64,000 nt of DNA, from positions 146,998-210,997 of the forward strand of contig CAYOQS010000002.1 in the NCBI GenBank assembly GCA_964406185.1. Direction: 5' to 3'. This document shows positions 1 to 38,622 of this stretch, one piece after another. A model generated the notes under the pieces. It did no database searches and was not told where the DNA came from. It saw nothing but the letters and a program-made list of their open reading frames with translations. A program made the position numbers and the translations under genes. How positions within the stretch are numbered: position 1 is the stretch's first letter; every line of letters begins with the position of its first letter. The stretch comes from an uncultured Methanosarcinales archaeon (GTDB lineage Archaea > Nanobdellota > Nanobdellia > Woesearchaeales > UBA11576).

Positions 1-103
1 GTCTAAGTCAAGGGATTATTTAAATATGCTTAAAGGTTCTATCCTGTTTGAAACCTATAGCACAGAGATATTTTACCACTTATGGAGAACAACGCACAGC
101 AAG

Positions 104-112
104 TTTTATATA
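104..112 (+). promoter_or_regulatory. TATA-like box (TTTTATATA) upstream of first ORF
   Basis: AT-rich box about 80 nt before the ATG at 192. An SD-like AAGGTG lies closer to the start. Confidence 0.3.
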
Positions 113-191
113 CGACTTCTTGCTGAAATATTTTTGAAGGGTTTTTCTGGTATTCCCCACAGCTTGGGCATAAGGTGTTGAGGGTATTATC

Positions 192-5826: not shown

Positions 5827-8778
5827 ATGGATAAAATGAATAATGGACCTAAATCAGACAATGGAGTTCTAGATAGCCTTGAAAACGCTGTAAACAGCGT
5901 AAATGAGGTTAAAATCGATGTCAGAAAAGCTTCCGCACCTGGCAGACTGGGCTTTGGCGTAGCGACTCTACTGACAGCTATGGGTGTTGCAGACACTGCT
6001 CACGCAGAACAGGGAGTGGATCACAGGACAGAGACCCTGACACAGCTCAGGCAGCACGCCATAAACCACGAGTCAAGTGAGGCTTACGGGGATGGCCATC
6101 CGAGCGACTTGCTTATCGGCCTCGGCCATGACGAGCTTGTTAGGGCTATGGAGATGATCGATGCATTTCCCACTATGAGTGTCGATACGCTATATCTGCT
6201 TGTGAGAGGTCCTGGTGCTCAATCCCCTAGCACTTCACACTCTAATCCAAGTTCTATCCACTACGGCACAGAGCCGATACTGATACCTCAGCATGCTGAT
6301 GCGGGCCAGGCATTGGCGAATTTCATCAACGCTCATTACGCTGATGAGGACGTCCAGGCCAAACAGTCCATACTGCAGGCCATGGTCCAGGAGGCACAGG
6401 AGCTCGGCCGAATAGGCATGACAACCCCTGGCGGTTATATCGCTCTTGCGCATGATGTTCTCCTCGCTGGTGAGGAGGCATTGATGGGGGTGTACGCTCC
6501 TACTCCCGCGACGGCACCAGCACCTTCAGATGCAGCTGCCGAGCCTTCTCCGCAGCCTACGCCGCCTGCACCGCAGGTCACGATAGTGCACGTTCCAGAG
6601 GAGGAGGCGGAACAGCCGACTCCATCACCGCAGCCAGCTCCTGCTGAATCAGCATCTGCTGAGCCTGAACAGGCAGAGCCCGCTCCGGAATACACACCTT
6701 CCGGGCCCGCTCCAGAGGATGCTGCATCACCAGCCGCTCCGGAAGTACCTGCAGAGCCAGCCCCAGAGACTGCTCCTGCAGAGCCGCAGCCTGACCCCTG
6801 CTCTGAGACAGCGGTGGACCAGGCGCAGCTGAACATTTATGAGTCTGCTGTAACGCAGCTCGAGGACCCCGCGGTTCCCGAAGGGACGGTACGCGCGAAT
6901 GCAGAGGCGAACCTCGACGCTCTCGTAGAGAGATGCCCTGATGCTGACAACACAGACACGCTAAGCGACGTAAACGAGGCGATAGAGAACTACGCCTGCC
7001 AGGACCCGAGACTTCAGGACGCTATCGACGCTGCGCAGCAGGAAGCGCAGGGCATGATGGACGATCACGTTCCTGCAGAGGACATACTCACATCTGCGGA
7101 GGAGAGATGGGGTGAAATCCAGGAGAGGTGCACTCTCAGTCCAGATTATTTTGACGGCGCGAGACAGGCATTGAATGATGTCCTGGCCTCATACCTGACT
7201 GAAGAGATAAACCGGATCCAGTTCAGCGGTCTTGACATGCAGGGCGGTTTCATGACAGGAGATCACGTCTCGCCTTCCAGCGCCGGCGGGCATCTTTTCC
7301 TTGCCTGGCAGAATGAGGCAGAGGCTGGCCAGGAGGGTCACAACCCTATGGGGCTCAGTCTTTTCCTTGACGGCGGAAACTATCTCGTCGAGGATGTCGA
7401 CGGCGGTGACATCGAGAATCCGTTCGGCGGTATGATATTCAACATGGGCACAGGCCAGCACCCTGGCCGGTCAGGTGACTGGGGCTTGAGGCTTTCATTG
7501 AACGGCCTCTGGTTCAGGCAGACTTCTGCCTATGACCTTGGCACCAGCGTGGAAGGCCCGACCACTTTGCCTATCGAGGGCGGCACTGAGACCACCACGA
7601 TAGAGCAGTCAGAGTCCGGCATGTCTGAGACGCAGGGCGACCTGCTCGGCAACTGGCTTGCTACAGGTGAGGGCTACGTTGAGATAGGCCAGCTTGAGAT
7701 CAATCTTGGTGTCGGCTTCGGCCAGTACGCAAGGCATGATGCCTCCTCAGCCCATATCGAGACAGGAACTGATGTTGAGCAGGACTCGCATGCTGACGGC
7801 CCGCCTGCAGTGGATGTCCATACTGAGGGCGGTTCCGACGTGACCACAGACACCCTGACATTGACAGATGTCCTGACTAACATGCTGCTTTTCAGGGCTG
7901 GCGGCCTTTACAGGCTGCAGGACCCGAACCTCGCGTTCGGTCTTGACGCTTTCGGCTCTTACATGTGGGGCGGCTCTGATTCAGTTACTTCAGTAGACAG
8001 CCATGTCGTGGTGCATGACACCGTGACTGGTATAGACATCGAGGGTTTCCCTTCAGAGCAGGAGGTTGTTCCCGGTTCTGAGAGTGATGTTCATGAGGAA
8101 GAGAGTGCTTCCTCAAGCCATTCGCAGTGGAACCTTGTGCTTAGGGCACGTGTGCTCTACGATGCTGAGAACATGGCTTTCAGGCTCGAGGCAGGACCTG
8201 TGTTCGGTGATTACGGCGATGGTGTGGAGATGAACGGTATGCCTGTCGGCGGCAATGTTACAGGCCTTGGCACTACACATGGTCTGATCTTCGGCGGCAA
8301 TGCAGGCTTTGACGGAGACAACTTCGATCTCGACGGTATGTTCGCGACTTATGATGACTTCCAGAGGTTTGTCGGCTATGTTGACATGGTCAATGAGCTT
8401 AGGAGCGGGAGCATAATTGATGACCAGCTGAGGGAGCAGTATCTTGACATGCTGTTCCACAGCATGATAGAGACCAATGACGGTTTCATGGTCACTGCGG
8501 GCATGAGGGTTGATGCGGAAGGTGATGTTTCAGGCCATGCGGCTCTTGGCTACGCGCACCAGTTCCCTGGTGTCGGCCCTCTCGGCCTTAGCGTCCAGGC
8601 TGACAGTGAGGACATGAGCATAGGCGCGACGGGTTACATACCTTTGACTCATGGATTTAGTGCCAGGTTAAGCGGCTACACCAGTGAGGATGAGCTCGTT
8701 GACGAGCGCGTCTGGGGAATGAACGGCGCCCTGGTTTACCATTGGGGCCTGCCGCAGGGCGGCGATGATGCTGAATGA
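5827..8778 (+). CDS. secreted protein with Pro/Ala/Glu-rich linker and Gly/Asp-rich C-terminal domain
   Basis: 983-aa ORF. Signal-like GFGVATLLTAMGVADTAHA. PAPE-type low-complexity region at residues 225-320. SD AAGGGG before the start. Confidence 0.7.
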   Translation: MDKMNNGPKSDNGVLDSLENAVNSVNEVKIDVRKASAPGRLGFGVATLLTAMGVADTAHAEQGVDHRTETLTQLRQHAINHESSEAYGDGHPSDLLIGLGHDELVRAMEMIDAFPTMSVDTLYLLVRGPGAQSPSTSHSNPSSIHYGTEPILIPQHADAGQALANFINAHYADEDVQAKQSILQAMVQEAQELGRIGMTTPGGYIALAHDVLLAGEEALMGVYAPTPATAPAPSDAAAEPSPQPTPPAPQVTIVHVPEEEAEQPTPSPQPAPAESASAEPEQAEPAPEYTPSGPAPEDAASPAAPEVPAEPAPETAPAEPQPDPCSETAVDQAQLNIYESAVTQLEDPAVPEGTVRANAEANLDALVERCPDADNTDTLSDVNEAIENYACQDPRLQDAIDAAQQEAQGMMDDHVPAEDILTSAEERWGEIQERCTLSPDYFDGARQALNDVLASYLTEEINRIQFSGLDMQGGFMTGDHVSPSSAGGHLFLAWQNEAEAGQEGHNPMGLSLFLDGGNYLVEDVDGGDIENPFGGMIFNMGTGQHPGRSGDWGLRLSLNGLWFRQTSAYDLGTSVEGPTTLPIEGGTETTTIEQSESGMSETQGDLLGNWLATGEGYVEIGQLEINLGVGFGQYARHDASSAHIETGTDVEQDSHADGPPAVDVHTEGGSDVTTDTLTLTDVLTNMLLFRAGGLYRLQDPNLAFGLDAFGSYMWGGSDSVTSVDSHVVVHDTVTGIDIEGFPSEQEVVPGSESDVHEEESASSSHSQWNLVLRARVLYDAENMAFRLEAGPVFGDYGDGVEMNGMPVGGNVTGLGTTHGLIFGGNAGFDGDNFDLDGMFATYDDFQRFVGYVDMVNELRSGSIIDDQLREQYLDMLFHSMIETNDGFMVTAGMRVDAEGDVSGHAALGYAHQFPGVGPLGLSVQADSEDMSIGATGYIPLTHGFSARLSGYTSEDELVDERVWGMNGALVYHWGLPQGGDDAE

Positions 8779-8923: not shown

Positions 8924-11900
8924 ATGGGCAACAAAAAAATCTGTACATTTGTCGTGTTGGCTGTGCTGCTCTCAGCACTGTTCGCTGTCAGCGCTTACGC
9001 GCTGCCTGACAATCCGCCGACATGCAGCTTGTCTTCCAACACGGAGGACGCGACTACTACTGCCGTATTGACTTCAGTATCTGTCGATACGTTGGCCAAC
9101 GCGGGTATATCTTCCATCAAGATATATGAGGGTGGGAGCAGGATATACACCAAGAGCTGCGGCTATGCCACGACTTGTGTGGCTACGAAGACCGTGGTGC
9201 ATACCACGCCAGGCGATCATGATTACCATGCTGTCTGCCGTGACAGGGCCGGCCAGGAGACAAGGTCAGGTACTGTGACTGTTGATTTTGAAGGCATGAA
9301 CAGGCCGCCTGTGATCGACAGCTTTGCGCCCGCTAGCCCGACCACTATCGATGAGGACGAGATCCTTGCTATCAGTGTTTCTGCCCATGACCCTGATGGT
9401 GATTCCCTGTCTTATGAGTGGAGGGTGGACGGTGTCACGCAGCCCGGCGAGACTTCTGATTCCTTTGATTTTGAGAGGAATGTAGGTGGCGACAGCGATT
9501 CTTTTGTAGTTGCGGTCTATGTTAGGGACGGCAATGGCGGTGTCGATGTGCAGACCTGGACTGTCATCGTGAACGACCTTGAGCCCGGGGTCGTCCTTGA
9601 TGGTGATGACGGCCTGACAGAATGCGACACTTTCGCTTTTGACGCTGATATAGACTCTTATGATGATATAGTGATGTACTCCTGGGATTTCGGTGATGGT
9701 GAAGTGCTGAACAGCGCGGATCCTGCTGATGCTTCAGTGACGCACCAGTTCCCTGAGGACGGCACTTACACAGTGGCAGTGACCGTGATGGATGCTGACG
9801 GCGACACCGCTTCCGATTCAATGGATGTGGAGGTTCTTGATATAGCTCCGGTAGTGGATGCCGGTGAGGACCAGGAGATGGTAGAGGGAGATACTGCTTT
9901 CTTCCATGGCGAGGCGACCATGCCCTGCGACGCTGACTCTATAGTCAGCTGGGACTGGGATTTCGGTGACGGCAATTCCGCTTCCGGCCAGGATGTGGAC
10001 AACACGTTCACTGATGACGGCACTTTTACGGTGATCCTTACTGTATGTGATGATGACGGCAGCTGCACTTCCGACACCCTTACCGTGACCGTGAACGATA
10101 CCGAGCCTGCAGCAGACTTTGATTACGTGCCTGCCGATCCTATAGAGGGGGATGAGGTCAATTTCACAGACACTTCTGTATCTTATGATGATATAGTCTC
10201 ATGGGAGTGGGACTTTGACGGTGACGGGGTCATAGACTCTGCCGATCAGGATCCTTCATGGACTTATGATATTGAGGGAGATTATACTGTCTGCCTGACA
10301 GTGACTGACGAGGACGGCGACGCTGACACGCACTGCGAGACTATAACAGTCGGCAACAACGCGCCTGAGGTCGACCTTGTTGCGAACGTTACTGCGGGTG
10401 ACGAGCCTCTGAGCGTGCATTTTGACTGCATCGTCACGGGCGGCAACGCTCCTTTCGATTTCATGATAGATTTCGGTGACGGTTCTGCGCCGGAGCCGAG
10501 CGGTTCTGCTGAGCATACCTACACTGATGATGGTGATTACAACGCGACCTGCACTGTGATGGATGCAGACGGTGATGTGGATTCAGACTCTGGGGACGTG
10601 ACCGTCTTCAATGTCGTGCCTGTCGTGGACCTGATGCTCAACACGACCAGCGGCACAGAGCCTCTTGACGTCCATGCTGACTGCATCGCGACTGACGGCA
10701 ACGAGCCTTATAATTACTCTATAGACTTCGGTGACGGCACTGTGGTCGACAGTGATTCTGCTGACCATACTTACGTGCAGGATGGAACTTATGAGGTCAT
10801 CTGCACTGTCGAGGACGCGGATGGCGACACTGCCTCGGATTCAGAGCTTGTCGATGTATTCGACACCGTGCCTGTGATAGACTTCACGTGGGATCCTGCC
10901 CTTCCTGAGGAGCATGACCTTGTGGATTTCGATTCCACGATCGATGTCTATGACGTCCCTTATGACGTGGAGTGGGATTTCGACGGCGATGGTGCTGCTG
11001 ATGATACTGTGGAGGATCCTTCATGGACTTTCGCTTCCGGCGGTGACTACAACGTGACGCTCACTGTCTGCGATGATGACGGGAGCTGTACTTCTGTGTC
11101 CCACGTTGTGCACGTGGCTTCCAACCCGCCTGAGGCTGAGATCATTGTAGACCCGCTTAGCGGGACAGAGCCTCTTGATGTTGACATAACGTGCAACGGA
11201 TATGATGGCGATGCGCCTCTCAGCTATGAGATAGATTTCGGTGACGGCACAGCGCCTTCTTCAGCTTCTGTGACGACGCACACTTTCGCTCAGAACGGCA
11301 CTTATAATATAACCTGTACAGTGACTGATATAGATGGTGACATGGATGTTGACTGGGAGGTCATCGATGTGTTCGATACCGTGCCGAACGTCTCTTTCAC
11401 CTACTCTCCGGCGGATCCGCTTGAGGGTGAGACTGTTGATTTCGACGCGACTATCGACGTGTATGACACTCCGGTGGATATCGTGTGGGATTTCGGTGAC
11501 GGCGGTTCAGATACTGTGGAGGACCCGTCCCATGTTTTCGTTGATGACGGATCTTATCCTGTTACTATGACTGTGACTGACGCTGACGGTTCTGTGGCGA
11601 GCTTCACAGAGGTTGTGAACGTGTCTGTCAACGCTGCTGACGTGATGCTTGTCGCAAACACGACTTCAGGCTACGAGCCTCTGGATGTAGAGTTCGCATG
11701 TGCGGCTCTTGACGGCAACCCGCCTTACACTTATGAGATAGACTTTGGTGACGGCACTGCTCCGGCCTCCAGCTCCAGCGCATCACATACTTATGTGCAG
11801 AACGGCACTTACACTGCTGTGTGCACGGTGACTGACGATGATGGTGACGTGACGAATGACACTGTCGTGATAGATGTGCTTGACACTGTTCCTTTCGTGG

Positions 11901-14900
11901 ACTTTGACTACACGCCTCTCTCTCCTGTTGAGGGTGATGATGTGGATTTCGACGGCACGATCACTGCTTATGACACTCCGGTAACATGGGAGTGGGATTT
12001 CGACGGTGACGGCGTGGCTGACTCATTTGATGAGGACCCGACATGGAATTTCGCGCTTGAGGGCGACTACAATGTCACGCTCACAGCGACGGACGATGAC
12101 GGCTCCGTGACTGTCTATTGGGAAGTTGTCAGCGTGGGCAACAACGAGCCTTTCGTCAACCTGCTCGCCGACCCGCTTTCCGGACCTGAGAACATGAACG
12201 TGACGTTCAACTGCACTGTTACGAACGGGAACGATCCGCTTTCATTCTCGATGGATTACGGTGACGGCAGCTCAGGCACTGACCAGGATTCTGTGCATCA
12301 GTACACCTCTCCTGGCAGCTACGTGGCTACATGCACGGTGACTGATGCTGACGGCGATGTGGACTCTGACTTCGTGATAATCAATGTGGCGAACAACGCG
12401 CCTAATGTGACCATGACTGCTGATGATACCAACCCGACCGAGGGTCAGGTAGTTGATTTTGAGTGCGGCATCACCGGCGGTGATGAGCCTTTCAGCATAC
12501 TGGTCGATTTCGGTGACGGAACCACGACGACTGACCCCAGCGAGGATCATGCTTACGCGCTTGAGGGCATCTACACCGCGTCCTGCACCGTGACTGACGA
12601 TGACGGCGACATAGGATTCGATGATATAGAGATAAACGTCTCTAACAATGCGCCTGTCGTGAACCTGGATACCAACGTGACTTCAGGTTACGAGCCTCTG
12701 AGCGTGGAGTACAACTGCTCTGTTGGCGGCGGCAACGGGCCGTTCTCCTACCTTGTCGATTTCGGTGACGGCAGCACCAGCACTAGCGCTACAGGTACGC
12801 ATGACTATCCGACGCCTGGCGTGTATCCTATGACCTGCACGGTGACTGACACTGACGGTGATGTTGATGACGATACTGTCGGCATCCACGTGCTGGACAA
12901 CCCGCCCGTGGTTGACCTGATAGTTACGCCGTCTACCAGCGGTGTGGAAGGGGATTCTTTCCATTTCTTCTGCAACGTGACCGGCGGCAACGAGCCGTTG
13001 GGCTACGTGCTTGATTTCGGTGACGGCACGAGCACGACCAGCGATACTGCTGACCATACTTATGGTCTTGAGGGCAGCTACAATGCTACGTGCACCGTGA
13101 CTGACCTTGATGGTGATGTCGGCTTGGACGATGAGGTAATAGACATAGCGAACAACCCGCCTACTGTGAACCTGGTGGCGAACACTACCAGCGGCCTTGA
13201 GCCTTTGACAGTTAACTTCACCTGTGAAGTGGGCGGCGGCAACGAGCCTTTCAGCTATGTGGTTGATTTCGGTGATGGCACACCTTCAGTGGCTGCTGAC
13301 AACGCGGTCCATACATACCCGACAGAGGGCGACTTCGACGCTACATGTACAGTGACTGATGTTGATGGTGATGTCGGCTCTGATATTGAGCATATCGAGG
13401 TCATCAACAACCCTCCTGTGGTTGATCTTGTGGCTGTACCTATGGCAGGTCTTGAAGGTGTCAATGTCTCGTTCACCTGCAACGTGGTCGGCGGCAACGA
13501 GCCTCTGGCTTATGTCCTTGATTTCGGTGACGGCACCTCTACCACAGACTCTTCCGCATGGCATGCTTACCCGCTTGAGGGCGACTACAATGCATCCTGT
13601 CAGGTCATCGACGATGATGGGGACATCGGTGAGGACTGGGAATGGATAAACGTGTCGAACAACCCGCCTGTCGTGAATCTTGTGGTGAATGATACTGTTG
13701 GCCTTGAGCCTCTTAGTGTGAATTATACCTGTAATGTCGGCGGCGGCAATGAGCCTTTCAGCTACGTGATGGATTTCGGCGATGGAAGCCCTGTAAGCTC
13801 AAGCCCTGAAGGCACCCATGACTACCCGCTTCCGGGCATATATGATATGGAGTGCACGGTGACTGATGTTGACGGTGATGTTGACAGTGATTCTGTATCT
13901 ATAGAGGTTATCGACAACCCTCCTGTTGTGGATCTTGTCGCGACGCCTTCGGTAGGTCCTGAAGGCATCAACGTGTCTTTTGACTGCCTTGTCACTGGCG
14001 GCAATGAGCCTTTCAGCTATGTGCTTGATTTCGGTGATGGCAGTGCGTCTGTCAGCACGGATTCAGCGAGTCATGTGTACCCGCTTGAGGGATTGTACGA
14101 TGCTACGTGCACCGTGACTGATCTTGACGGCGATGTTGGCAGTGACTGGGAAGAGATAAACGTGACGAACAACGTGCCTGTCGTGAATCTGGTCACTAAT
14201 GTGACTGACGGTACGGAGCCTCTTGACGTGTTCTTCAACTGCACGCTTGTGGGCGGCGGCAATGAGCCTTTCAGCTACGCTATCGATTTTGGGGATGGTA
14301 CTCCTGTCGTGGCTTCACAGACCGCTTCGCACACATATCCGCAGAACGGTACTTATGATGCTTCATGCACCATAACCGATTCTGATGGCGATGTTAGCGT
14401 GCCTGATGTTGAGAGCATCGACGTGTATGATTCAGAGCCGGATACCCTGTTCAACTTCACTCCGTCTAGCCCGATCGAGGGTGATATGGTGTCTTTCACA
14501 GACCTATCGACTGCTTATGATGGCATAGTGGCTTGGGACTGGGATCTTGGTGACGGCAACACGTCCACGCTGCAGAACCCGTCGCACGTTTACGACCTTG
14601 AGGGCAATTACTTCGTGACGCTCTGCACCACTGATGGTGACGGCAGCTCAACATGCCACAGTGAGTGGGTCGATGTGGGCAATAACGTTCCTGTTGTTGA
14701 TGTGACTGTTGTTCCTGATTCAGGCACGGAGCCTCTTGCGGTGGCTGTGACATGTACGGTGACTTCCGGCGGCAATGCGCCTTTCACTTATAATATGATG
14801 TATGGTGACGGCGACTCTACTTCGAGCGCCAGCAGCATGCATGGTTACGACCAGGATGGCTCTTATCCTGTCACGTGCCAGGTGACTGATGTTGACGGTG

Positions 14901-17347
14901 ATGTTGGCACTGATGTCGAGACCGTGACGGTCAATGACACAGAGCCTGTAGCGGACTTTACATGGGCTCCGGCGAGCCCGAGCGCGGGTGATCCGGTCAA
15001 TTTCACCGACCTTTCCACTGCTTATGACGGCATCGCCTCATGGGCTTGGGATTTCGAGAATGACGGCGTGACTGACGACACCGGCCAGCACCCGTCCCAC
15101 GTGTTCCCTGGTGCAGGATTGTATGTTGTCAACCTGACAGTGACTGACAATGACGGCAGCACCGACTGGACCATAAGGACTGTCGCTGTTAATATCAGCA
15201 CGCCTGCTCCGGTGATCTTCAGCGTGAATGTTGAGGACATCACTAATGTCTCGGCTAATGTGACCTGGGCTACTGACCAGGCGGCTGATTCGGATGTGGA
15301 GTACGGTCCGACCATGATGTTCGGCTCGAGCGTGTCTGACCCTGCTCTTGTTTTCAGCCATGAGATGGAGCTTTCAGGCCTTACGCCTAACACCACTTAT
15401 TATTTCCTGGTGACTTCGTGCAACACGTTCGGTGACTGTACCACTGAGGGTCCTTTCAACTTCACGACCCTGCCTACCGGCGCTATTGATGTTACAGCTC
15501 CGGTGGTGAGTCTGATGGCGCCTGCTGACGGCTCTACTGACGTTGATGGTGATGTCATGATCCAGTATGGTGTGACTGATGACATGGCCTCCACACTCTC
15601 TTGCGATATCTACTCTAACACGAGCGGTGCTTGGGCTGTGGATCTTGCCGGCCAGTCCACTGCTGATGGCGGCACGAACACCCATTCGTATGTGGGCCTG
15701 CCTGACGGCAGCTATATGTGGAATGTCGGGTGCAGTGACGGCTCTAACTCTGCTTTCGCTGCTGCTGACTGGACGTTTGATGTGAACACGAGCGCTCCTG
15801 CTGACGTGACTCCTCCCATTGTCACGTTGATGGCGCCTGCTGATGGCTCTTCTGATGCTGACGGTGACGTGGTGGTGCAGTACAATGTGACTGATGACAT
15901 GGCCGCGATAATGGCTTGCGATATATACTCCAATACCAGCGGTGCTTGGGCTGTGGATCTTGCCGGCCAGCTGACTGCTGACGGCGCGAGCAACATGCAT
16001 ACTTACCTTGGCCTTGCCGATGGTGATTATGGGTGGAACGTGGTGTGCAGTGACGGTACGAACAGCGCTTCAGCTCCTGCGAACTTCACTTTTGATGTGG
16101 ATTCCAGCGTTGCTGACGTGACTCCTCCCATTGTCACGTTGATGGCGCCTGCTGACGGCTCTTCTGATGCTGATGGTAATGTGACTGTGCAGTACAACGT
16201 GACTGATGACCTTGCGGCGACGATGTCTTGTGATATCTACTCTAACACGAGCGGTGCTTGGGCTGTGGATCTTGCCGGCCAGCTGACTGCTGACGGCGCG
16301 AGCGGCTCTTTTGATTACACAGGTCTTGCTGACGGCAGCTACAGGTGGAATGTCGGGTGCAGTGACGGCTCTAACTCTGCTTTTGCTGCTGCTGACTGGA
16401 CGTTTGACGTGAACACCAGCTCTCCTGGTGGCGCTCCGGTGGTGACCGCTTCCGCAAGTCCGGCTTCAGGTGCTGTACCTCTGCTGGTGCAGTTCAACGC
16501 TTCTGTCGTGGGCGGTGATGCTCCACTCTCTTTTGATTGGGATTTCGACGGTGACGGCACGGTGGACAGCACTGCGCAGGATCCGATGCACGTATTCAAC
16601 AGCGATGGGGTGTACACTGCAACTGTCAATGTGACTGATGATGATGGTGAGTGGGACACTGACAGCGTGACCGTTTCTGTGTCTTCGACTGTCCGTGACA
16701 TAGCTGTCAACACGATCACTGACTCAAAGGTGGGCACGACCGCTTACCTGTGGGATGTTATAGATGTGACTTCAGATGTTGAGAACCAGGGCGGTGCTGA
16801 CGAGACTGTCACTGTCGAGCTTGAGGTGGACGGCGTGGTCGTTGACAGCACTTCAGTGGTTGTCGGCGCTGGTGCGACTGTGCCTGTGACTCTCAGCTAC
16901 AACGCGACTGCAGAGGGCTTCAATACTGTCGTGATGCGCGCGGTCCCTCTCGCAGGAGAGGTAGACCTTGCTGATCAGACGCAGTCTGAGAGCCTGAGGG
17001 TGTGGTCTGTGGATGACATCGTGAGCATGTCGACAAGGGAAGTTTTCCTTTCCACCAACATAGTGATCGCCGGCGGGGCTTTCAGCGTGTTCCTGCCTGT
17101 GCAGAACAGTTATGCTATCCAGGGCTTCGATGACCTGAGGACAGAGGTATGGTCTTCTGACCTTGGCGCTTTCAGCGCTGCATCGCCGGCTCCTGTGCAG
17201 TATGTGGACCTTGCTGGCGGCGCGTTCGAGCTCGTCCAGTGGGATTTCAACGCTGTGATGCCGGGCACTTATGTGATGAGCGCTGAGCTGGGCAATGGCG
17301 AGATAGACCACACGATGATCACTTCCAAGATGATCACTGTGGTCTGA
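8924..17347 (+). CDS. giant secreted surface protein: about 23 PKD-like repeats, an Fn3-like module, three ~105-aa repeats, C-terminal CARDB-like domains
   Basis: 2807-aa ORF. Signal peptide MGNKKICTFVVLAVLLSALFAVSAYA. The motif (W/I/V)DFGDG or WDFDGDG recurs about every 90 aa. SD AAGGGG lies upstream. Confidence 0.9.
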   Translation: MGNKKICTFVVLAVLLSALFAVSAYALPDNPPTCSLSSNTEDATTTAVLTSVSVDTLANAGISSIKIYEGGSRIYTKSCGYATTCVATKTVVHTTPGDHDYHAVCRDRAGQETRSGTVTVDFEGMNRPPVIDSFAPASPTTIDEDEILAISVSAHDPDGDSLSYEWRVDGVTQPGETSDSFDFERNVGGDSDSFVVAVYVRDGNGGVDVQTWTVIVNDLEPGVVLDGDDGLTECDTFAFDADIDSYDDIVMYSWDFGDGEVLNSADPADASVTHQFPEDGTYTVAVTVMDADGDTASDSMDVEVLDIAPVVDAGEDQEMVEGDTAFFHGEATMPCDADSIVSWDWDFGDGNSASGQDVDNTFTDDGTFTVILTVCDDDGSCTSDTLTVTVNDTEPAADFDYVPADPIEGDEVNFTDTSVSYDDIVSWEWDFDGDGVIDSADQDPSWTYDIEGDYTVCLTVTDEDGDADTHCETITVGNNAPEVDLVANVTAGDEPLSVHFDCIVTGGNAPFDFMIDFGDGSAPEPSGSAEHTYTDDGDYNATCTVMDADGDVDSDSGDVTVFNVVPVVDLMLNTTSGTEPLDVHADCIATDGNEPYNYSIDFGDGTVVDSDSADHTYVQDGTYEVICTVEDADGDTASDSELVDVFDTVPVIDFTWDPALPEEHDLVDFDSTIDVYDVPYDVEWDFDGDGAADDTVEDPSWTFASGGDYNVTLTVCDDDGSCTSVSHVVHVASNPPEAEIIVDPLSGTEPLDVDITCNGYDGDAPLSYEIDFGDGTAPSSASVTTHTFAQNGTYNITCTVTDIDGDMDVDWEVIDVFDTVPNVSFTYSPADPLEGETVDFDATIDVYDTPVDIVWDFGDGGSDTVEDPSHVFVDDGSYPVTMTVTDADGSVASFTEVVNVSVNAADVMLVANTTSGYEPLDVEFACAALDGNPPYTYEIDFGDGTAPASSSSASHTYVQNGTYTAVCTVTDDDGDVTNDTVVIDVLDTVPFVDFDYTPLSPVEGDDVDFDGTITAYDTPVTWEWDFDGDGVADSFDEDPTWNFALEGDYNVTLTATDDDGSVTVYWEVVSVGNNEPFVNLLADPLSGPENMNVTFNCTVTNGNDPLSFSMDYGDGSSGTDQDSVHQYTSPGSYVATCTVTDADGDVDSDFVIINVANNAPNVTMTADDTNPTEGQVVDFECGITGGDEPFSILVDFGDGTTTTDPSEDHAYALEGIYTASCTVTDDDGDIGFDDIEINVSNNAPVVNLDTNVTSGYEPLSVEYNCSVGGGNGPFSYLVDFGDGSTSTSATGTHDYPTPGVYPMTCTVTDTDGDVDDDTVGIHVLDNPPVVDLIVTPSTSGVEGDSFHFFCNVTGGNEPLGYVLDFGDGTSTTSDTADHTYGLEGSYNATCTVTDLDGDVGLDDEVIDIANNPPTVNLVANTTSGLEPLTVNFTCEVGGGNEPFSYVVDFGDGTPSVAADNAVHTYPTEGDFDATCTVTDVDGDVGSDIEHIEVINNPPVVDLVAVPMAGLEGVNVSFTCNVVGGNEPLAYVLDFGDGTSTTDSSAWHAYPLEGDYNASCQVIDDDGDIGEDWEWINVSNNPPVVNLVVNDTVGLEPLSVNYTCNVGGGNEPFSYVMDFGDGSPVSSSPEGTHDYPLPGIYDMECTVTDVDGDVDSDSVSIEVIDNPPVVDLVATPSVGPEGINVSFDCLVTGGNEPFSYVLDFGDGSASVSTDSASHVYPLEGLYDATCTVTDLDGDVGSDWEEINVTNNVPVVNLVTNVTDGTEPLDVFFNCTLVGGGNEPFSYAIDFGDGTPVVASQTASHTYPQNGTYDASCTITDSDGDVSVPDVESIDVYDSEPDTLFNFTPSSPIEGDMVSFTDLSTAYDGIVAWDWDLGDGNTSTLQNPSHVYDLEGNYFVTLCTTDGDGSSTCHSEWVDVGNNVPVVDVTVVPDSGTEPLAVAVTCTVTSGGNAPFTYNMMYGDGDSTSSASSMHGYDQDGSYPVTCQVTDVDGDVGTDVETVTVNDTEPVADFTWAPASPSAGDPVNFTDLSTAYDGIASWAWDFENDGVTDDTGQHPSHVFPGAGLYVVNLTVTDNDGSTDWTIRTVAVNISTPAPVIFSVNVEDITNVSANVTWATDQAADSDVEYGPTMMFGSSVSDPALVFSHEMELSGLTPNTTYYFLVTSCNTFGDCTTEGPFNFTTLPTGAIDVTAPVVSLMAPADGSTDVDGDVMIQYGVTDDMASTLSCDIYSNTSGAWAVDLAGQSTADGGTNTHSYVGLPDGSYMWNVGCSDGSNSAFAAADWTFDVNTSAPADVTPPIVTLMAPADGSSDADGDVVVQYNVTDDMAAIMACDIYSNTSGAWAVDLAGQLTADGASNMHTYLGLADGDYGWNVVCSDGTNSASAPANFTFDVDSSVADVTPPIVTLMAPADGSSDADGNVTVQYNVTDDLAATMSCDIYSNTSGAWAVDLAGQLTADGASGSFDYTGLADGSYRWNVGCSDGSNSAFAAADWTFDVNTSSPGGAPVVTASASPASGAVPLLVQFNASVVGGDAPLSFDWDFDGDGTVDSTAQDPMHVFNSDGVYTATVNVTDDDGEWDTDSVTVSVSSTVRDIAVNTITDSKVGTTAYLWDVIDVTSDVENQGGADETVTVELEVDGVVVDSTSVVVGAGATVPVTLSYNATAEGFNTVVMRAVPLAGEVDLADQTQSESLRVWSVDDIVSMSTREVFLSTNIVIAGGAFSVFLPVQNSYAIQGFDDLRTEVWSSDLGAFSAASPAPVQYVDLAGGAFELVQWDFNAVMPGTYVMSAELGNGEIDHTMITSKMITVV

Positions 17348-20320: not shown

Positions 20321-20494
20321 TTATAGTGATACTCTGCCTTGCGAGTCTTTAGATTTCTTCATTTTGCTGCGTGGTGTGTTTCCGTATCTTTGATTCGGGA
20401 ACATATCGCGGTCCGCAGGAGCTCGATATCCTGGTAGTATCTTATTAGGCATGCTGTGCTGCTCGCGCTCTGGCAGTATTGTAGATGCAGACAT
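20321..20494 (-). CDS. small basic hypothetical protein (57 aa)
   Basis: Internal ATG of the 88-aa ORF, preceded by AAGGAG 8 nt upstream and a TTTATAAAT box (20536-20544). Confidence 0.4.
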   Translation of the reverse strand: MSASTILPEREQHSMPNKILPGYRAPADRDMFPNQRYGNTPRSKMKKSKDSQGRVSL

Positions 20495-20566
20495 AGATGA
20501 CTTCTCCTTTCTGGACAGAGCATTTCTCACCGTAACATTTATAAACAGCTGATGACCTTGTTTAGC

Positions 20567-20574
20567 TTTAGATA
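20567..20574 (+). promoter_or_regulatory. TATA-like box (TTTAGATA) 28 nt before the tRNA-like fragment
   Basis: Spacing resembles the TATA-to-start spacing seen at leaderless genes in this window. Confidence 0.3.
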
Positions 20575-20602
20575 GCTCCAAAACCATACTTTAGGGCTAT
20601 TT

Positions 20603-20689
20603 GGGCGCGTAGTTTAGCAAGGCTGCATCTTTTCATAAAAGCTGCACCAAAACATTATGGGATGCGCTCCCTTCGGTCGCTTACCCATA
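20603..20689 (+). other. tRNA-like 5' fragment with no T arm or 3' acceptor strand
   Basis: The first 15 nt (GGGCGCGTAGTTTAG) are identical to the tRNA-Val 5' end 123 nt downstream. GTTT...AAAC could form a D stem around an insertion. A 6-bp hairpin TATGGG/CCCATA has a 22-nt loop. No CGCGCCC partner lies before 20820. Confidence 0.4.
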
Positions 20690-20725
20690 CAAGCACATGA
20701 AAACTCAAATTTTTTTCCCAAAATA

Positions 20726-20827
20726 TGGGCGCGTAGTTTAGTGGCTACATCGATACTGGTGTGTTGGTGCCGCAGATAACATCCCGTTGACGTCGGGAAG
20801 GTCCCCGGTTCAAGTCCGGGCGCGCCC
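20726..20827 (+). tRNA. tRNA-Val(GAC) with a ~29-nt insertion in the D-arm region
   Basis: Acceptor GGGCGCG/CGCGCCC plus discriminator A. Anticodon arm TCCCG-TTGACGT-CGGGA. Variable loop AGGTC. T arm CCCGG-TTCAAGT-CCGGG. 46 nt lie between positions 9 and 27 where 17 are expected (insertion about 20747-20775). Confidence 0.8.
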
Positions 20828-20837
20828 ATTTGAGAAA

Positions 20838-20874
20838 GACAAAATTCCGGACGAGTTTACGAGTCGGGATTTTG
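20838..20874 (+). repeat. GA-motif hairpin element, copy 1 (short form)
   Basis: Helix ACAAAATTCC/GGGATTTTGT, a bulged G, then GAC/GTC, tandem G.A/A.G and a G-C pair, closed by loop TTTA. Confidence 0.6.
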
Positions 20875-20888
20875 TGTTTTCAAATGCT

Positions 20889-20969
20889 TGATAATCCCGG
20901 ACGAGTTTCAAGCTCTGCTTGAAGTCTTACAGCATTTATGATGCTGAAAGAGTTGCGAGTCGGGATTAT
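20889..20969 (+). repeat. GA-motif hairpin element, copy 2, carrying a ~46-nt two-hairpin insertion in its loop
   Basis: Same arms as copy 1 (GATAATCCCGGACGAG ... GCGAGTCGGGATTATC). The loop holds TTCAAGC-tct-GCTTGAA (20906-20922) and CAGCAT-ttatg-ATGCTG (20929-20945). Confidence 0.6.
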
Positions 20970-21026
20970 CTTTGTATTGAATAAAGGCAGAAAATCGCCA
21001 AATGGTTTCCCAAAAAAGAGGTCATT

Positions 21027-21698
21027 ATGGAAGTACCGCAATACACGCTGCGGCCTGACACTAATGCGATGGTCGCTCCTTGGATACTGAAGCTTCTGCT
21101 GCTGGCGGCTGTCTTCTATGTGGGTATCTACATCAATGTCAAGCTTTTGTGGGATCGGAGCATACCTGCTGCTATCAACATCTTCATCTTTGTCTTTCTT
21201 GCTGTGCTTGTCGCTACGCAGGTCGTGCTGTATCGTGTGCGGTTCGGCAAGTACAAGTACAAGTTTTTCACGAACAGGATCGAGTTTGAGGGCAAGAAAA
21301 GCCAGACTTTCCTTTTCAATGATTTTTCTGAGGCGAAGCTGAAGCAGGGGTTGTTCGACAAGATGTTCAACACAGGGGATATTATCCTCAGCAAGAGCTT
21401 CTCTATCGATCATGTTCCTAATGTGGTTCAGATAAAGAATTATCTTGAGCAGTTGGTGAATTATTATCGTGCTATGCAGCAGAGGTATAGGCTGCAGCAG
21501 CAGCGCATGCAGGCAGGTGTTTCAGCGCAGCAGCCAGGGCAGGCGGGGCAGGCACCGCAGTCTCAGCAGCCTTTGCGGCAGCCTTCTCAGCAGAATTCGC
21601 AGCAGCCTGCTCAGTCTCAGCCTTCGGAGGGAGGGCAGGCTTCAGCTGGGCAGCCAGGCGGTGCTGCGGGTCAGGGTCAGTATGGTCAGGGTGGTTGA
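21027..21698 (+). CDS. membrane protein with bacterial-type PH (bPH_2/YdbT-like) domain and Gln-rich tail
   Basis: Two TM helices followed by FTNRIEFEGKKSQTFLFNDFSEAKLKQGLFDKMFNTGDIILS. C-terminal poly-Q/PGQ region. Confidence 0.6.
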   Translation: MEVPQYTLRPDTNAMVAPWILKLLLLAAVFYVGIYINVKLLWDRSIPAAINIFIFVFLAVLVATQVVLYRVRFGKYKYKFFTNRIEFEGKKSQTFLFNDFSEAKLKQGLFDKMFNTGDIILSKSFSIDHVPNVVQIKNYLEQLVNYYRAMQQRYRLQQQRMQAGVSAQQPGQAGQAPQSQQPLRQPSQQNSQQPAQSQPSEGGQASAGQPGGAAGQGQYGQGG

Positions 21699-26875: not shown

Positions 26876-26900
26876 CTTCTGCGATCCCTGTTCTGCCAGG

Positions 26901-27499
26901 GTGGCAGCTGCCACCGTTCTTCGCGTGTCCTTAGGAGTCACATGTGGAATGAGCTGCACTTTACCAACAAACAATAGGTATTGCGCAAGCGAAGCAAGCA
27001 ACATCATAAGGCACATTAGATCGCAGCCAACATAATCTATAGCAACGTGGCAGCTGCCACCGCTTCTTACGTTGCTGCAGCCGCCGCTTGTTGCGCGTCC
27101 TAAGACAGCTCGGCGGGAATTGGCTGCACTTCCACCATCAGCTTTAGTCATTGCGCAAGCTTGCAAGCACGGTGAGGATGAAACATTAGTCAGCACGCCC
27201 ACAGAAGTCTAGCAGCGCGGCTGCAGCGTTCTGTATCCGCCCTCGTGGCAGCTGCCACCGCTTCTTACGTTGCTGCAGCCGCCGCTTATTGCGCGTCCTA
27301 AGACAGCTCGGCGGGAATTGGCTGCACTTCCACCATCAGCTTTAGTCATTGCGCAAGCTTGCAAGCACGGTGAGGATGAAACATTAGTCAGCACGCCCAC
27401 AGAAGTCTAGCAGCGCGGCTGCAGCGTTCTGTATCCGCCCTCGTGGCAGCTGCCACCGCTTCTTACGTTGCTGCAGCCGCCGCTTATTGCGCGTCCTAA
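26901..27499. repeat. tandem repeat: one diverged 146-bp unit, two 198-bp units, and a 57-bp partial unit
   Basis: GTGGCAGCTGCCACCG recurs at 26901, 27047, 27245 and 27443. Units 27047-27244 and 27245-27442 differ at one base. Confidence 0.95.
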
Positions 27500-27648
27500 G
27501 AACATATCATCTTATTCAACACAACACTGTCATCTCTCAAAACTTCCCATCACTCACTGGACATTCTAATCACGCCACTACAGCGCCTGAGCAGCAGGGA
27601 TTCTGACTTTCCAGCCTTTCACTGGACACAGGACAACCTGTAATGAGC

Positions 27649-27656
27649 TATATAAA
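27649..27656 (+). promoter_or_regulatory. TATA box (TATATAAA) in a non-coding region
   Basis: Canonical box followed by ACC, with no ORF downstream. It may drive a small RNA (see findings). Confidence 0.35.
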
Positions 27657-27918
27657 CCAGGCCAGACATATTATACTATGAAACCACGAAGTCAGGGGCT
27701 AAGGCCGCAGCGACAAAGCCTCTTCCAGCATCAGAGATGCTGCAAGCTTTCAAGCCACTACGTGTCTTGAAATGCTTCCGCTTGACTTCGTCAAGCTTCG
27801 GGGCACCACGCACGCCAGATTCATGATGTATCATTTTTGCCGAAGGCTGCAAATATTGATTGATCATGGATAAGACTGATGGCGTGCTGAATATGTGCCT
27901 CAGGCTTTTACGCTGCTT

Positions 27919-27955
27919 ATTAACGCAGACGGGGCTTTAGCCCGTCAGCGTTAAT
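27919..27955. repeat. symmetric hairpin (8 bp, A.A mismatch, 6 bp, 7-nt loop)
   Basis: ATTAACGC-A-GACGGG-gctttag-CCCGTC-A-GCGTTAAT. Confidence 0.7.
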
Positions 27956-27957
27956 CC

Positions 27958-28049
27958 CAAAGAATTTGTCAATCAATTTGCAAGCCCGTAATACCCCTGC
28001 CTTTAGGTCGGGGATAGGGCTTGCCTGTAGATTATTGACAAATTCTTTG
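27958..28049. repeat. 92-nt long inverted repeat / extended hairpin
   Basis: Perfect 16-bp outer arms CAAAGAATTTGTCAAT/ATTGACAAATTCTTTG. Inner 8-bp GCAAGCCC/GGGCTTGC. Apical CCCC/GGGG. Confidence 0.75.
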
Positions 28050-28097
28050 TTATCTTTACTGTAGCAGTTTTGCTATTGGTTAAACAAGGTGAATATC

Positions 28098-38286: not shown

Positions 38287-38432
38287 ATCCTGATTCTTCG
38301 ATAAAAATATTCGAGCAAAGTCCTGACCGTAGCCGCCTGCTTTTTCAGTTTCGCTCTGCGATATAGGCAACGCACGCATATCAGCTTAGAATATGGCGCG
38401 TGCGTGGCGCTTGGAAACGTGTTTTCAAGTCT

Positions 38433-38466
38433 GATAATGCCGATGAGCTTGCGAGTCGGCATTATC
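38433..38466 (+). repeat. GA-motif hairpin element, copy 3
   Basis: GATAATGCCGATGAGC-tt-GCGAGTCGGCATTATC. Same flanks (TGATAAT...ATTATCTTT) and tandem G.A/A.G as copies 1-2. ATCCC/GGGAT is replaced by ATGCC/GGCAT, which is compensatory. Confidence 0.6.
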
Positions 38467-38622
38467 TTTAGCGCGAGAGTTTTCCGCAGGAAAACGGAGC
38501 AGGGCAGGACTTTGCGTCCTGCTGGCTTTGTAGCTGCGTGATACTGAACCGGAGCAGGGCGTGGCTTGGCAACAATTAACATAGGCAATGCAGCTGCGTA
38601 ACCTTCTTGTCTACTCCCAAGC

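Follow-up and report, generated by a model that had tools for sequence, protein, structure and literature searches.

A lineage-specific family of strand-specific hairpin elements behind tRNA genes and in dispersed repeats of Woesearchaeales

The tRNA-Val locus and the three hairpin copies

The window, by which we mean the whole 64-kb stretch of DNA that was analysed, comes from a Woesearchaeota/Nanoarchaeota-like archaeon and contains a tRNA-Val(GAC) gene with two long hairpins, h1 and h2, directly behind it (Table 1). ARAGORN and Rfam annotate only 20757-20828 of this gene; its acceptor strands can be read in the sequence as GGGCGCG and CGCGCCC+A, and the bulge-helix-bulge (BHB) motif of its D-loop intron lies at 20741-20776 (GTGG[CTA]..CCGC[AGA]). 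In h1 an A-rich 5' arm pairs with a U-rich 3' arm, and the latter includes the first oligo-T runs after the tRNA. The second hairpin is closed by an outer clamp in which ATGC (20884-87) pairs with GTAT (20974-77).

An earlier note on this DNA had described three hairpins, here copies 1 to 3, with a lower helix, a short upper helix, tandem G.A/A.G mismatches and a closing G-C pair. Reading and folding of the sequence recovered all three on the plus strand with that anatomy, together with the bulged G common to copies 1 and 2 (G20849 and G20899) and the exchange of a C-G pair for G-C between copies 2 and 3. Copies 1, 2 and 3 have fold energies of -17.2, -35.3 and -18.8 kcal/mol (z-scores of -3.8, -4.7 and -2.7), and the reverse strand of copies 1 and 3 folds less well than the forward strand. 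A covariance model trained on relatives and copy 1 only gave 47.9 bits for copy 1 (E 2e-12) and 41.6 bits for copy 3 (E 2e-10), while the minus strand of the window reached only 11-19 bits. No further copies were found in the 64-kb window with the unfiltered covariance model, a long-form regex or a short-form regex. Extension along the source contig added only 3.4 kb.

Table 1. Positions of the tRNA gene, hairpins and associated features in the window
Feature	Position	Strand	Details
tRNA-Val(GAC) with D-loop BHB intron	20727..20828	+	Gene directly 5' of the hairpin pair
h1, long hairpin	20829..20883	+	Begins directly after the tRNA discriminator base; core 20840-20874 is copy 1
Copy 1, lower helix		+	C20840-C20848 with G20866-G20874, including the T20846.G20868 wobble
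Copy 1, upper part		+	G20849 bulged; GAC 20850-52 with GTC 20863-65
Copy 1, apex	20853..20862	+	Tandem mismatches G20853.A20862 and A20854.G20861; G20855-C20860 closes a TTTA loop
h2, long hairpin (copy 2)	20884..20977	+	Abuts h1 directly
Copy 2, lower helix		+	G20890-C20898 with G20962-C20970; G20899 bulged
Copy 2, upper part		+	GAC 20900-02 with GTC 20959-61; GA 20903-04 opposite GA 20957-58; top pair G20905-C20956
Apical insertion in h2	20906..20955	+	50 nt: mini-hairpin 20907-20923, GUCU, hairpin 20925-20951, GUUG
Composite multi-hairpin intergenic element with module	38397..38540	+	Fold -96.5 kcal/mol, z -3.6
Mini-hairpin CUUGGAAA-CGUG-UUUUCAAG	38410..38429	+	First arm of the module holding copy 3; from sequence and fold
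Copy 3	38433..38466	+	G38433-C38441 with G38458-C38466, no bulge; GA hairpin of the complete module
Copy 3, upper helix		+	GAT 38442-44 with GTC 38455-57, one U.G
Copy 3, apex		+	GA 38445-46 opposite GA 38453-54; CTTG loop closed by G38447-C38452

Conservation and covariation of the hairpins

Two long abutting hairpins corresponding to h1 and h2 were found in the 3' flanks of at least 19 related tRNA genes, which include Val-GAC, Val-UAC, Gly-GCC and other types. At least 16 of the 19 units begin 1-12 nt past the tRNA 3' end, and their strand is always that of the tRNA. Orthologous tRNA-Val genes are present in the related loci L005-L010, and the unit has been retained at this orthologous locus although the adjacent protein is only 61-68% identical. 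In L036, the h1 of a second unit, associated with a GGGCCC-type tRNA, is almost identical to the h1 of tRNA-Val in L005 and clearly unlike the h1 of the other L036 unit. We conclude that copies 1 and 2 make up a tRNA trailer unit of two consecutive long hairpins, which is old and has been inherited vertically. Relatives that have no unit were also found (L004, L011-L014 and L016). Where the unit is present, the first oligo-T after the tRNA falls within the h1 3' arm; in L013 and L004 a plain T-run directly follows the tRNA. Some relatives have the unit between two tRNA genes and, as the next tRNA is only 13-15 nt further on, there is no room for a promoter before it. A role for h2 itself as promoter of the downstream gene or tRNA was rejected, as its AT-rich arms are at the wrong distance: in L036 and L052 they lie between -10 and -20 relative to the next tRNA.

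The proposal in the earlier note that the copies are a conserved structure formed by a single strand is strongly backed by compensatory changes across dozens of related sequences. In the core alignment, pairing is kept in 97.8% of cells and 8 of the 13 core pairs show compensatory changes, a level of covariation that was reached by none of 500 shuffles; slid controls fall to 30-42%. The consensus structure of the whole unit, derived from 16 related loci, has 17 of its 35 pairs compensated. The h2 clamp also covaries among relatives (AAUGC/GCAUU, AAUGU/ACAUU and CAUGU/ACAUG), and the h1 arms covary freely, whereas the h2 arms ATAATCCC/GGGATTAT are conserved in sequence. Tandem GA opposite GA is invariant in the aligned long-form hairpins (25/25), and in the same 25 hairpins the cap pair above the G.A covaries (GC in 14, AU in 6, CG in 4 and GU in 1). 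Related loci score 40-57 bits on the forward strand versus approximately 19 on the reverse strand. U.G pairs are present in the GAU/GUC helix, and G.T wobbles are found on one strand only.

Further copies of the kind that the earlier note anticipated were returned by the covariance model, with 65 forward matches in 377 kb of related loci, all of them intergenic once spurious ORF calls are set aside. The spacing between the arms varies from 15 to >60 bp. In short forms the whole cap has been swapped for a GAA-type triloop, and as short forms without tandem GA exist (L007, L052 and L056-58), the GA cap is dispensable in some members. The lower part of the family core is made up of an A/U-rich stem with CC/GG at its end, in some members one bulged base, and a 3-bp GAC/GUC helix, and the upper part comprises the tandem G.A/A.G mismatches, fixed in long forms, a covarying 1-2 bp cap and a tri- or tetraloop.

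Sites that act as double-stranded DNA, whether palindromic operators, promoter elements or recombination (att) sites, are a very improbable explanation for these features. In their favour, the h2 arms are conserved in sequence, we read the AT-rich linker TTTTTTAATG as similar to the TATA box of archaea, and this lineage has small insertions with tRNA-end repeats of 12-34 nt on either side. However, the variable arm spacing, the retention of the mismatches as GA on both arms, the confinement of G.T wobbles to one strand and the free covariation of the h1 arms all argue against a duplex site. One version, in which copies 2 and 3 would be the att sites of a 17.5-kb island, was rejected because the 21-38 kb interval has pyrimidine-biosynthesis and other housekeeping genes and no integrase. 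Integron attC sites are recombination sites that act as folded single strands. In these sites, as in the family hairpins, an extrahelical base protrudes from the stem, mismatches form a small internal bubble, and the terminal structure varies greatly in size. The attC sites differ in that their arms are RYYYAAC/GTTRRRY, which those of h2 are not, in that the core sequence is strongly conserved here, and in that the window includes neither an integrase nor a cassette array.

Tandem G.A/A.G mismatches beside a Watson-Crick helix and near a terminal loop are reminiscent of the K-turn or K-loop bound by L7Ae, a classic protein-docking feature of archaeal RNAs. The family hairpins differ in having neither a 3-nt bulge nor an open loop, and carry instead a single bulged base 3 bp below the GA. 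As the pair directly above the G.A covaries, leaving no 3-nt bulge, the motif is not a K-turn. We consider it improbable that the copies act in trans, as small RNAs in their own right or as RNP scaffolds, in the manner of C/D or H/ACA-type sRNAs and with L7Ae bound to a K-loop-like apex. The presence of tandem sheared-type G.A beside a small loop in all long forms would fit such RNAs, and there is a precedent in the dicistronic tRNA-sRNA transcripts known from Nanoarchaeum (PMC3491384). Against this, covariation of the cap pair indicates that neither a 3-nt K-turn bulge nor an open K-loop is selected, the GA cap is missing in short forms, and no promoter belonging to the hairpins is visible. 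No C/D or ACA box, guide region or pseudouridylation pocket is present in the sequence, and identification as a C/D or H/ACA sRNA was rejected on these grounds. A hammerhead was also rejected: CUGAYGA-stem-CGAG resembles CUGAUGA-stem-CGAAA, but A14 is a G and GAC pairs with GUC.

An Rfam check, which the earlier note had suggested, found no Rfam 15 family, with either gathering or lenient thresholds, that matches the window, the tRNA locus or any of 26 related loci. At the gathering score the window and 20 loci gave no match, and lenient searches, of 20400-21100 at E<=10 and of 10 related loci at E<=1, returned only noise. Full-text searching of the literature found no description of this hairpin element. 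A viral origin was rejected: the full hairpin pattern was not found in IMG/VR viral sequences, and the stem of the only core match, which lies in a replication gene of a bacterial phage, is unrelated. We conclude that the three copies belong to an undescribed, lineage-specific family of strand-specific hairpin elements in Woesearchaeales/Nanoarchaeota (DPANN).

A two-hairpin module and its dispersal

The GA hairpin that constitutes copy 3 is the second part of an ORF-less module of approximately 60 nt, made up of a CUUG..CAAG mini-hairpin, UCU, a GA hairpin and CUUUA, which is complete at 38410-38470. The same mini-hairpin was found 5' of the GA hairpin in >20 related loci. By pairwise alignment, the composite element that includes this module has a homologue in L034, where the genomic locus is a different one, and the window copy has an additional mini-hairpin of approximately 21 nt (about 38500-38520).

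Modules are also nested at CCGAUG^ in the apex of other family hairpins (L006, L057, L047 and L054). In the case of copy 2, the earlier note had reported an enlarged loop of about 46 nt with two hairpins. The two hairpins are present, the first with 7 bp, and the insertion is 50 nt long, a net gain of 46 nt over a tetraloop. A three-way-junction fold, which corresponds to that note's reading of copy 2, has an energy of -32.1 kcal/mol versus -35.3 kcal/mol for the MFE structure. In the orthologous h2 of L005, L008, L009 and L010, apexes are only 5-7 nt, and the two-hairpin layout of the copy 2 loop is also nested in L006, L057 and L047. We conclude that the copy 2 loop is a degenerate two-hairpin module nested in the apex.

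This loop had also been described as intron-like and as having the same architecture as the tRNA insertions, neither of which was borne out. The tRNA-Val insertion (20745-20773) is a single-hairpin BHB intron. A BHB has two 3-nt bulges with a 4-bp helix between them and further helices on the outside, and a custom scan for it recovered this D-loop intron as positive control (flanking helices of 3 and 9 bp). Where the copy 2 insertion begins and ends, the scan found no BHB, its sole candidate being weak and misplaced (helices of 3 and 2 bp), and it found none at the homologous module junctions of L006 and L057. It is thus extremely improbable that copy 2 is an intron-containing precursor from which the tRNA splicing endonuclease would cut out the 46-nt insertion at a BHB to leave a short hairpin, even though non-canonical tRNA introns abound in this lineage, in D-loops as well as T-loops, and the insertion is located exactly at the apical loop. 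Mobile tRNA introns of the BHB type are known in Thermoproteales. Archaeal BHB introns are, like the module, small structured insertions in the loops of structured RNAs; the module differs in having no BHB at the copy 2 borders and in occurring outside a host RNA as well.

Among 21 distinct insertions, the left flank of the module is GNUG in about half (CCGAUG in four) and UUA or AUA in others, and the right end is YUUUA in most. Near-identical module-bearing repeats (95-99%) were found at unrelated loci of one metagenome, and the module is exactly missing from one copy of a 290-nt repeat. L022 and L050 were considered as a strict pair of filled and empty alleles, and this was rejected; as their common flanks extend for only 47 nt, the exact module indel is between paralogous copies rather than alleles. 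No target duplication was found at the module borders, either at the exact indel or in the nested copies, and terminal inverted repeats were also not found. The modules in dispersed repeats are in either orientation with respect to the flanking protein genes, and in ten cases they oppose both neighbours.

The dispersed repeats that host the module are MITE-like, that is, they resemble miniature non-autonomous transposons. The TIR and TSD of a MITE are missing from the GA hairpin and from the module, and are present only in some of the larger host elements; in L032, L038 and L059 the TIR is 15 bp long and the direct repeats are 8-10 bp. Identification of the larger host RNAs of L032, L059 and L049 as SRP or RNase P RNA was rejected, as Rfam supports neither; these RNAs instead show a TIR and flanking direct repeats of the lengths just given. 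Cyanobacterial SDR mini-elements are tiny hairpin repeats that nest within one another to generate multi-branch structures. The family resembles them in its nested tiny hairpin repeats and differs in sequence and host, which are unrelated, and in including conserved tRNA-linked copies.

That this is a new ORF-less, hairpin-only mobile module of DPANN archaea appears rather unlikely in its full form, which would involve site-specific insertion without target duplication, a putative enzyme that would read the bulge, GAC and tandem GA on one strand, and tRNA-trailer hairpins that are domesticated descendants of the module or its source. For such a module the insertion sites would be after GAUG in the apexes of related hairpins and beside tRNA 3' ends. 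A nested, travelling module of 60 nt would rank among the smallest mobile or duplicating units described in archaea and would be a source of new structured RNA.

RNA trailer or single-stranded DNA element

The reading that we favour, and to which we give slightly less than an even chance, is that the unit is a conserved RNA trailer or spacer structure of tRNA transcripts with a protein-docking GA motif, and that the module also proliferates. The h1-h2 unit would act as RNA, co-transcribed with the tRNA, and would fold into a rigid structured trailer or spacer bearing the first U-tract after the tRNA. This structured trailer may end, punctuate or protect the tRNA transcript, with the GA motif serving as a putative docking site for a protein. 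The short tRNA-unit-tRNA gaps and the position of the first oligo-T within the h1 3' arm are consistent with this reading, as is the lack of mobile-element genes among the window ORFs and among the best 25 of the 134 families near copies. The covariation, strand specificity, tRNA linkage and age of the unit also count in its favour, as does the recurrence of the module. However, the oligo-U tract within h1 would be expected to impede transcription through to h2 and the tRNAs beyond it, the GA cap is missing from the short forms noted above, and several relatives do not have the unit. In addition, modules are found either way round relative to neighbouring protein genes, an arrangement that suits a DNA element better than an RNA acting in cis.

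It also counts against this reading that archaea can terminate transcription without hairpins and that general use of hairpin terminators in the window is not enriched (22 found versus 17.7 expected). Hairpins followed by oligo-T are the intrinsic terminators of bacteria, and similar inverted repeats are found after tRNA and rRNA genes in Methanococcus. As a hairpin right behind the tRNA with A-rich and U-rich arms and the first T-runs inside it, h1 is similar. In contrast, the U-runs of h2 and copy 3 are limited to U3-U5, many modules run opposite to the genes on both sides, and the family unit has a fixed GA cap and a second abutting hairpin and also occurs between two tRNAs.

The principal alternative to an RNA trailer, which is possible though doubtful, is that the copies are DNA-level non-autonomous mobile elements that fold in single-stranded DNA, where an enzyme acting in trans, of the REP/RAYT or IS200/IS605 (palindrome-associated transposable element, PATE) type, would read one strand; the copies in tRNA flanks would then be old insertions at a preferred target, and any RNA would be incidental. 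GNA triloops and Y-GA-R tandem mismatches are very stable in DNA too, and this counts in favour of DNA. So do the two same-strand hairpins without a terminal inverted repeat or target duplication, the recurrent left junction (CCGAUG^/GNUG^) and conserved right end (CUUUA^), the near-identity of module-bearing repeats at unrelated loci, the strictly intergenic location of copies in either orientation relative to genes, and their nesting within their own kind. However, the left junction is not fixed, the tRNA-linked units are old paralogues under structural constraint rather than recent copies, and there is neither a GTAG/CGTC tag nor inverted REPIN pairing. The earlier note had allowed for an association with a transposase, but Y1/HUH transposase, TnpB and integrase genes are missing from the approximately 40 window ORFs, which were scanned individually. 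When 135 neighbouring ORFs were compared, no transposase or integrase family recurring near copies was found among the best 25 of 134 matched families.

REP and REPIN elements are repetitive extragenic palindromes of bacteria associated with RAYT. Like them, members of the family are imperfect palindromes 30-40 nt long that lie between genes in many copies, occur in clusters, are asymmetric between strands and in some cases look like terminators (PMC3733652, PMC3116915). The family differs in its flanks, where there is no GTAG/CGTC tag but UCUG/UUCA or AAUGCU upstream and CUUUA or UUUGCAU downstream, in its archaeal DPANN host, and in the head-to-tail rather than inverted arrangement of the hairpins. 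Furthermore, no RAYT gene was seen in the approximately 40 window ORFs, and the position behind tRNA genes is fixed and old. Like the PATEs derived from IS200/IS605, the module has two hairpins on the same strand, is free of terminal inverted repeats and target duplications, and shows a preference for certain insertion-site sequences 5' of its left hairpin. However, its two hairpins are unlike each other, its left junction is only loosely conserved, it is much smaller (approximately 60 nt), and neither TnpA nor TnpB was seen among the window ORFs or the best 25 of the 134 families matched near copies.

The genomes of DPANN archaea are tiny, their tRNA genes are highly fragmented and rich in introns, and little is known of how they process RNA. 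A conserved, structured two-hairpin unit directly behind many tRNAs would suggest an unrecognised step in the formation of tRNA transcripts or a so far unrecorded protein that binds RNA or hairpin DNA. The family also provides a covariance model for annotating Woesearchaeales genomes and accounts for intergenic 'palindromes' that break assemblies.

Both of the alternatives given in the earlier note, REP/IS200-type DNA hairpins and terminator-like elements, have some plausibility in modified form. Copy 1 lies within a long hairpin that includes the first oligo-U tract after the tRNA, and the family also behaves as a small dispersed palindromic repeat would.

The GA hairpins and their conserved core

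The three GA-motif hairpins described in an earlier note on this sequence are present where it placed them, all on the plus strand. In copy 1, the bulge is succeeded by GAC/GUC and then by the mismatches G20853.A20862 and A20854.G20861; a G-C pair caps these and closes the UUUA loop. Copy 2 had been described as copy 1-like with an enlarged two-hairpin loop, and this proved correct; its cap pair, G20905-C20956, encloses 50 nt, made up of a 7-bp mini-hairpin and a second hairpin. The three-way-junction fold originally proposed for copy 2 is less stable than the minimum-free-energy fold by 3.2 kcal/mol.

Features of the window
Feature	Position	Strand	Description
Giant ORF	8924-17347		One 2807-aa ORF, with a 586-aa CARDB-domain protein after it
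Promoter-like boxes	20535-20580		ACATTTATAAAC and GCTTTAGATAGCT; conserved, archaeal type
tRNA-Val 5' duplicate	20603-20617, 20727-20741		First 15 nt (GGGCGCGTAGTTTAG)
tRNA-Val(GAC)	20727-20828		
D-loop insertion	20741-20776 (bulge-helix-bulge motif)		~29 nt; GUGG[CUA]-hairpin-CCGC[AGA]
Copy 1 core	20840-20874	+	9-bp lower helix including one U.G pair; bulged G20849
Copy 2	20890-20970	+	Layout as copy 1
Copy 2 loop	20906-20955		Mini-hairpin 20907-20923; second hairpin 20925-20951
Hypothetical membrane protein	21027-21698		
ORF-free stretch	26876-28088		1.2 kb, no long ORF
Tandem repeat	27046-27501		198-nt unit, 2.3 copies, 99% identity
Long hairpin	~27953-28050		~100 nt, after the repeat
Copy 3 mini-hairpin	38410-38429		
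Copy 3	38433-38466	+	Bulge absent; GAU/GUC with U.G pair; apex G-CUUG-C
Extra mini-hairpin	38500-38520		GCAGGAC-UUUG-CGUCCUGC

Copies 1, 2 and 3 are more stable than shuffled sequences (z = -3.8, -4.7 and -2.7, respectively), and for copies 1 and 3 the plus strand folds clearly better than the opposite strand. A covariance model scored copy 1 at 47.9 bits and copy 3 at 41.6 bits, with 11-19 bits for the opposite strand. The further copies that the earlier note had proposed searching for were found in related loci and not in the 64-kb window, where neither the covariance model nor regex scans for the long form (tandem GA cap) and the short form (cap replaced by a triloop) returned any.

Of the cells in the 34-nt core, 97.8% are paired, a level reached by 0 of 500 shuffles and falling to 30-42% in slid registers. 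The conserved structure previously claimed from covariation is borne out by compensatory changes in 8 of 13 core pairs and, across 16 of the tRNA-linked units described below, in 17 of 35 pairs. The GA dinucleotides of the long form are invariant and the pair directly above them varies (GC, AU, CG or GU). The GAC/GUC helix is sometimes UAC/GUA or GAU/AUC; a bulged base accompanies C-G and no bulge accompanies U.G. In some members (L007, L052 and L056-58) the whole cap is replaced by a GAA, GUA or AAG triloop. As the GA hairpin is never flipped among covariance-model matches in related loci, its strand matters. The hairpin structure is strand-specific and under evolutionary constraint, and its GA core does not vary in the long form.

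Covariation of the cap pair, which directly adjoins the G.A pairs, excludes a K-turn or K-loop. Hammerhead, C/D and H/ACA RNAs were ruled out by reading of the sequence, and a trans-acting L7Ae RNP is a minor alternative. The Rfam check suggested earlier gave no family matching the window, and neither Rfam nor the literature searched yielded a matching family or description of the hairpin element. It shares traits with REP-like palindromic repeats, with terminator hairpins and with protein-binding GA motifs, and combines these traits in an undescribed way, in an archaeal lineage that has been little studied.

L062, a bacterial-phage-like IMG/VR contig (RusA, DnaC-like loader, HTH replication protein), has a perfect GAC-GA-G-CUUG-C-GA-GUC apex at 7137-7175, inside the replication-protein gene; it includes a bulged G, and the GC-rich 9-bp stem beneath it is unrelated. 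The likeness is probably convergent, and the apex is perhaps an origin hairpin.

A hairpin pair stacked behind tRNA genes

tRNA-Val(GAC) precedes copies 1 and 2, and a hypothetical membrane protein gene, with homologues only in Woesearchaeota/Nanoarchaeota bins, follows them; copy 3 is flanked by methyltransferase and MatE transporter genes. Relatives retain the order MBL hydrolase, tRNA-Val, hypothetical protein, AI-2E transporter and AMP phosphorylase. Both hairpins follow tRNA-Val in L005-L010 and are missing from L004, L011-L014 and L016, where the tRNA gives way to a plain T-run or to unrelated sequence. A metagenome pattern scan added 44 loci. The unit, comprising h1 (core, copy 1) and h2 (copy 2), is found behind several different tRNAs; in at least 16 of 19 cases it lies on the tRNA strand and starts 1-12 nt past the tRNA 3' end. 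RNAalifold (16 units) gave two long hairpins abutting each other and the tRNA, with UUAAAGAAAGG... paired with ...CCUUUUUUAA in h1 and a covarying outer clamp in h2 (AAUGC/GCAUU, AAUGU/ACAUU, CAUGU/ACAUG). In L036, the h1 of the second unit is nearly identical to that behind tRNA-Val in L005 and clearly unlike that of the other L036 unit. On this comparison, the tRNA-linked units are old and constrained, not recent copies.

In L036 and L052 the unit sits between two tRNAs, the next only 13-15 nt away, and such arrangements, without promoter space, suggest that the unit is transcribed together with the tRNA. We tentatively favour a reading in which the pair would act as RNA, a rigid trailer or spacer that supplies the first U-tract downstream of the tRNA and ends, punctuates or protects its transcript, with the GA motif as a putative protein contact and the module form spreading via a DNA-level process. 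Hairpin terminators as a general style of this genome are not supported in the window.

The tRNA-Val D-loop insertion forms a good bulge-helix-bulge (BHB), and because of it the ARAGORN and Rfam calls cover no more than the 3' two-thirds of the gene. This intron is conserved in L004-L006 and L011; T-loop introns occur in L035, L036, L047 and L058. A BHB scan that recovered it as positive control (helices of 3 and 9 bp) found no BHB where the copy 2 insertion or the nested modules begin and end. The intron-like reading of the copy 2 loop was not upheld, and an intron precursor is a minor alternative.

The two copies of the tRNA-Val 5' end are separated by a structured insert of 109 nt, absent from relatives; either copy can form BHB-like pairing with 20653-20670. 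A conserved promoter-like box, TTTAGATA, precedes the first (fragment) copy. The two boxes at 20535-20580, upstream of tRNA-Val, have equivalents in L005 and L006 and overlap a doubtful 88-aa minus-strand ORF (20321-20587).

Modular, nested and dispersed copies

At more than 20 loci, a mini-hairpin (CUUG...CAAG base, variable interior), UCU(G), the GA hairpin and (C)UUUA occur in series. Copy 3 has exactly this arrangement, within a ~150-nt composite element with a homologue at a different locus in L034. Modules also occur inside dispersed multi-hairpin repeats: in one metagenome a 290-nt repeat occupies at least five loci (95-99% identity, unrelated flanks), and one of these copies is missing precisely the second of its 50-nt modules. 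Some other host elements are bounded by a 15-bp terminal inverted repeat, with direct repeats of 8-10 bp on either side. Modules also nest inside other hairpins of the family: their apical site is one and the same phosphodiester, CCGAUG^, in L006/L037, L057, L047 and L054, and GAUG^ in L049 and L059; flanking bases are not duplicated. The copy 2 loop has the module's order (mini-hairpin, GUCU, hairpin, AAGAGUUG) and may be read as a degenerate nested module.

The junction preference, lack of target duplication, dispersal and mixed orientation of copies would also suit a REP or IS200/IS605-PATE type of single-stranded-DNA mobile element, with the hairpins as its recognition structures, and such loops and mismatches are very stable in DNA too. 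This main rival is somewhat less likely than the RNA reading. Against it stand a loose target sequence, the age of the tRNA-linked copies and the absence of a cognate enzyme among the scanned ORFs. About 40 ORFs in the window were scanned; they are of housekeeping or unknown function (pyrimidine synthesis, TFB, DNA ligase, PolX) and include no transposase or integrase. The transposase association that the earlier note had considered was not seen among them. Hairpin copies are intergenic, in either orientation relative to protein genes, and among the 135 ORFs next to them, which are unrelated housekeeping genes, no mobile-element family recurs in the best 25 of 134 matched families. Gene content of the window ORFs ruled out att sites of an island; a double-stranded DNA site is a minor alternative.

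Mini-hairpin interiors are flipped between copies. In L020 (2800-3010) the interior is inverted relative to the same repeat in L027 and L053 (AAATCCCTAAAAGATTT versus AAATCTTTTAGGGATTT), a flip of the palindrome apex. The extra mini-hairpin beyond copy 3, relative to the L034 homologue, is a further case of a small hairpin present as an indel.

MITE-like elements of 200-300 nt are present in L032 (~54-358, minus strand), L059, L049, L038, L054 and L060. Their ends form a 15-bp terminal inverted repeat, GGCTCTGTCCTGAAT...ATTCAGGACAGAGCC, flanked by direct repeats of 8-10 bp (GGCGGTAT, CCTCCAAC, ATTATGGTGA/ATTAGGGTGA), each holds a small CGAGC-GNA-GCGAG hairpin, and the family had no Rfam match. 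Insertions of ~85-330 nt between long direct repeats occur in L004 (2960-3110), L018 (190-420) and, on the minus strand, L043 (around 1450-1620) and L033 (around 2720-3050). The repeats copy the tRNA 3' end in L004 (34 nt), L018 (13-17 nt) and L043 (13 nt), and are 14 nt in L033; their lengths recall att-site or casposon-type duplications. Two of the four carry GA modules.

Elsewhere in the window, the 2807-aa product and the CARDB-domain protein probably belong to the giant surface proteins that typify DPANN archaea, and a public assembly of the same organism (L001) terminates within the 198-nt repeat.
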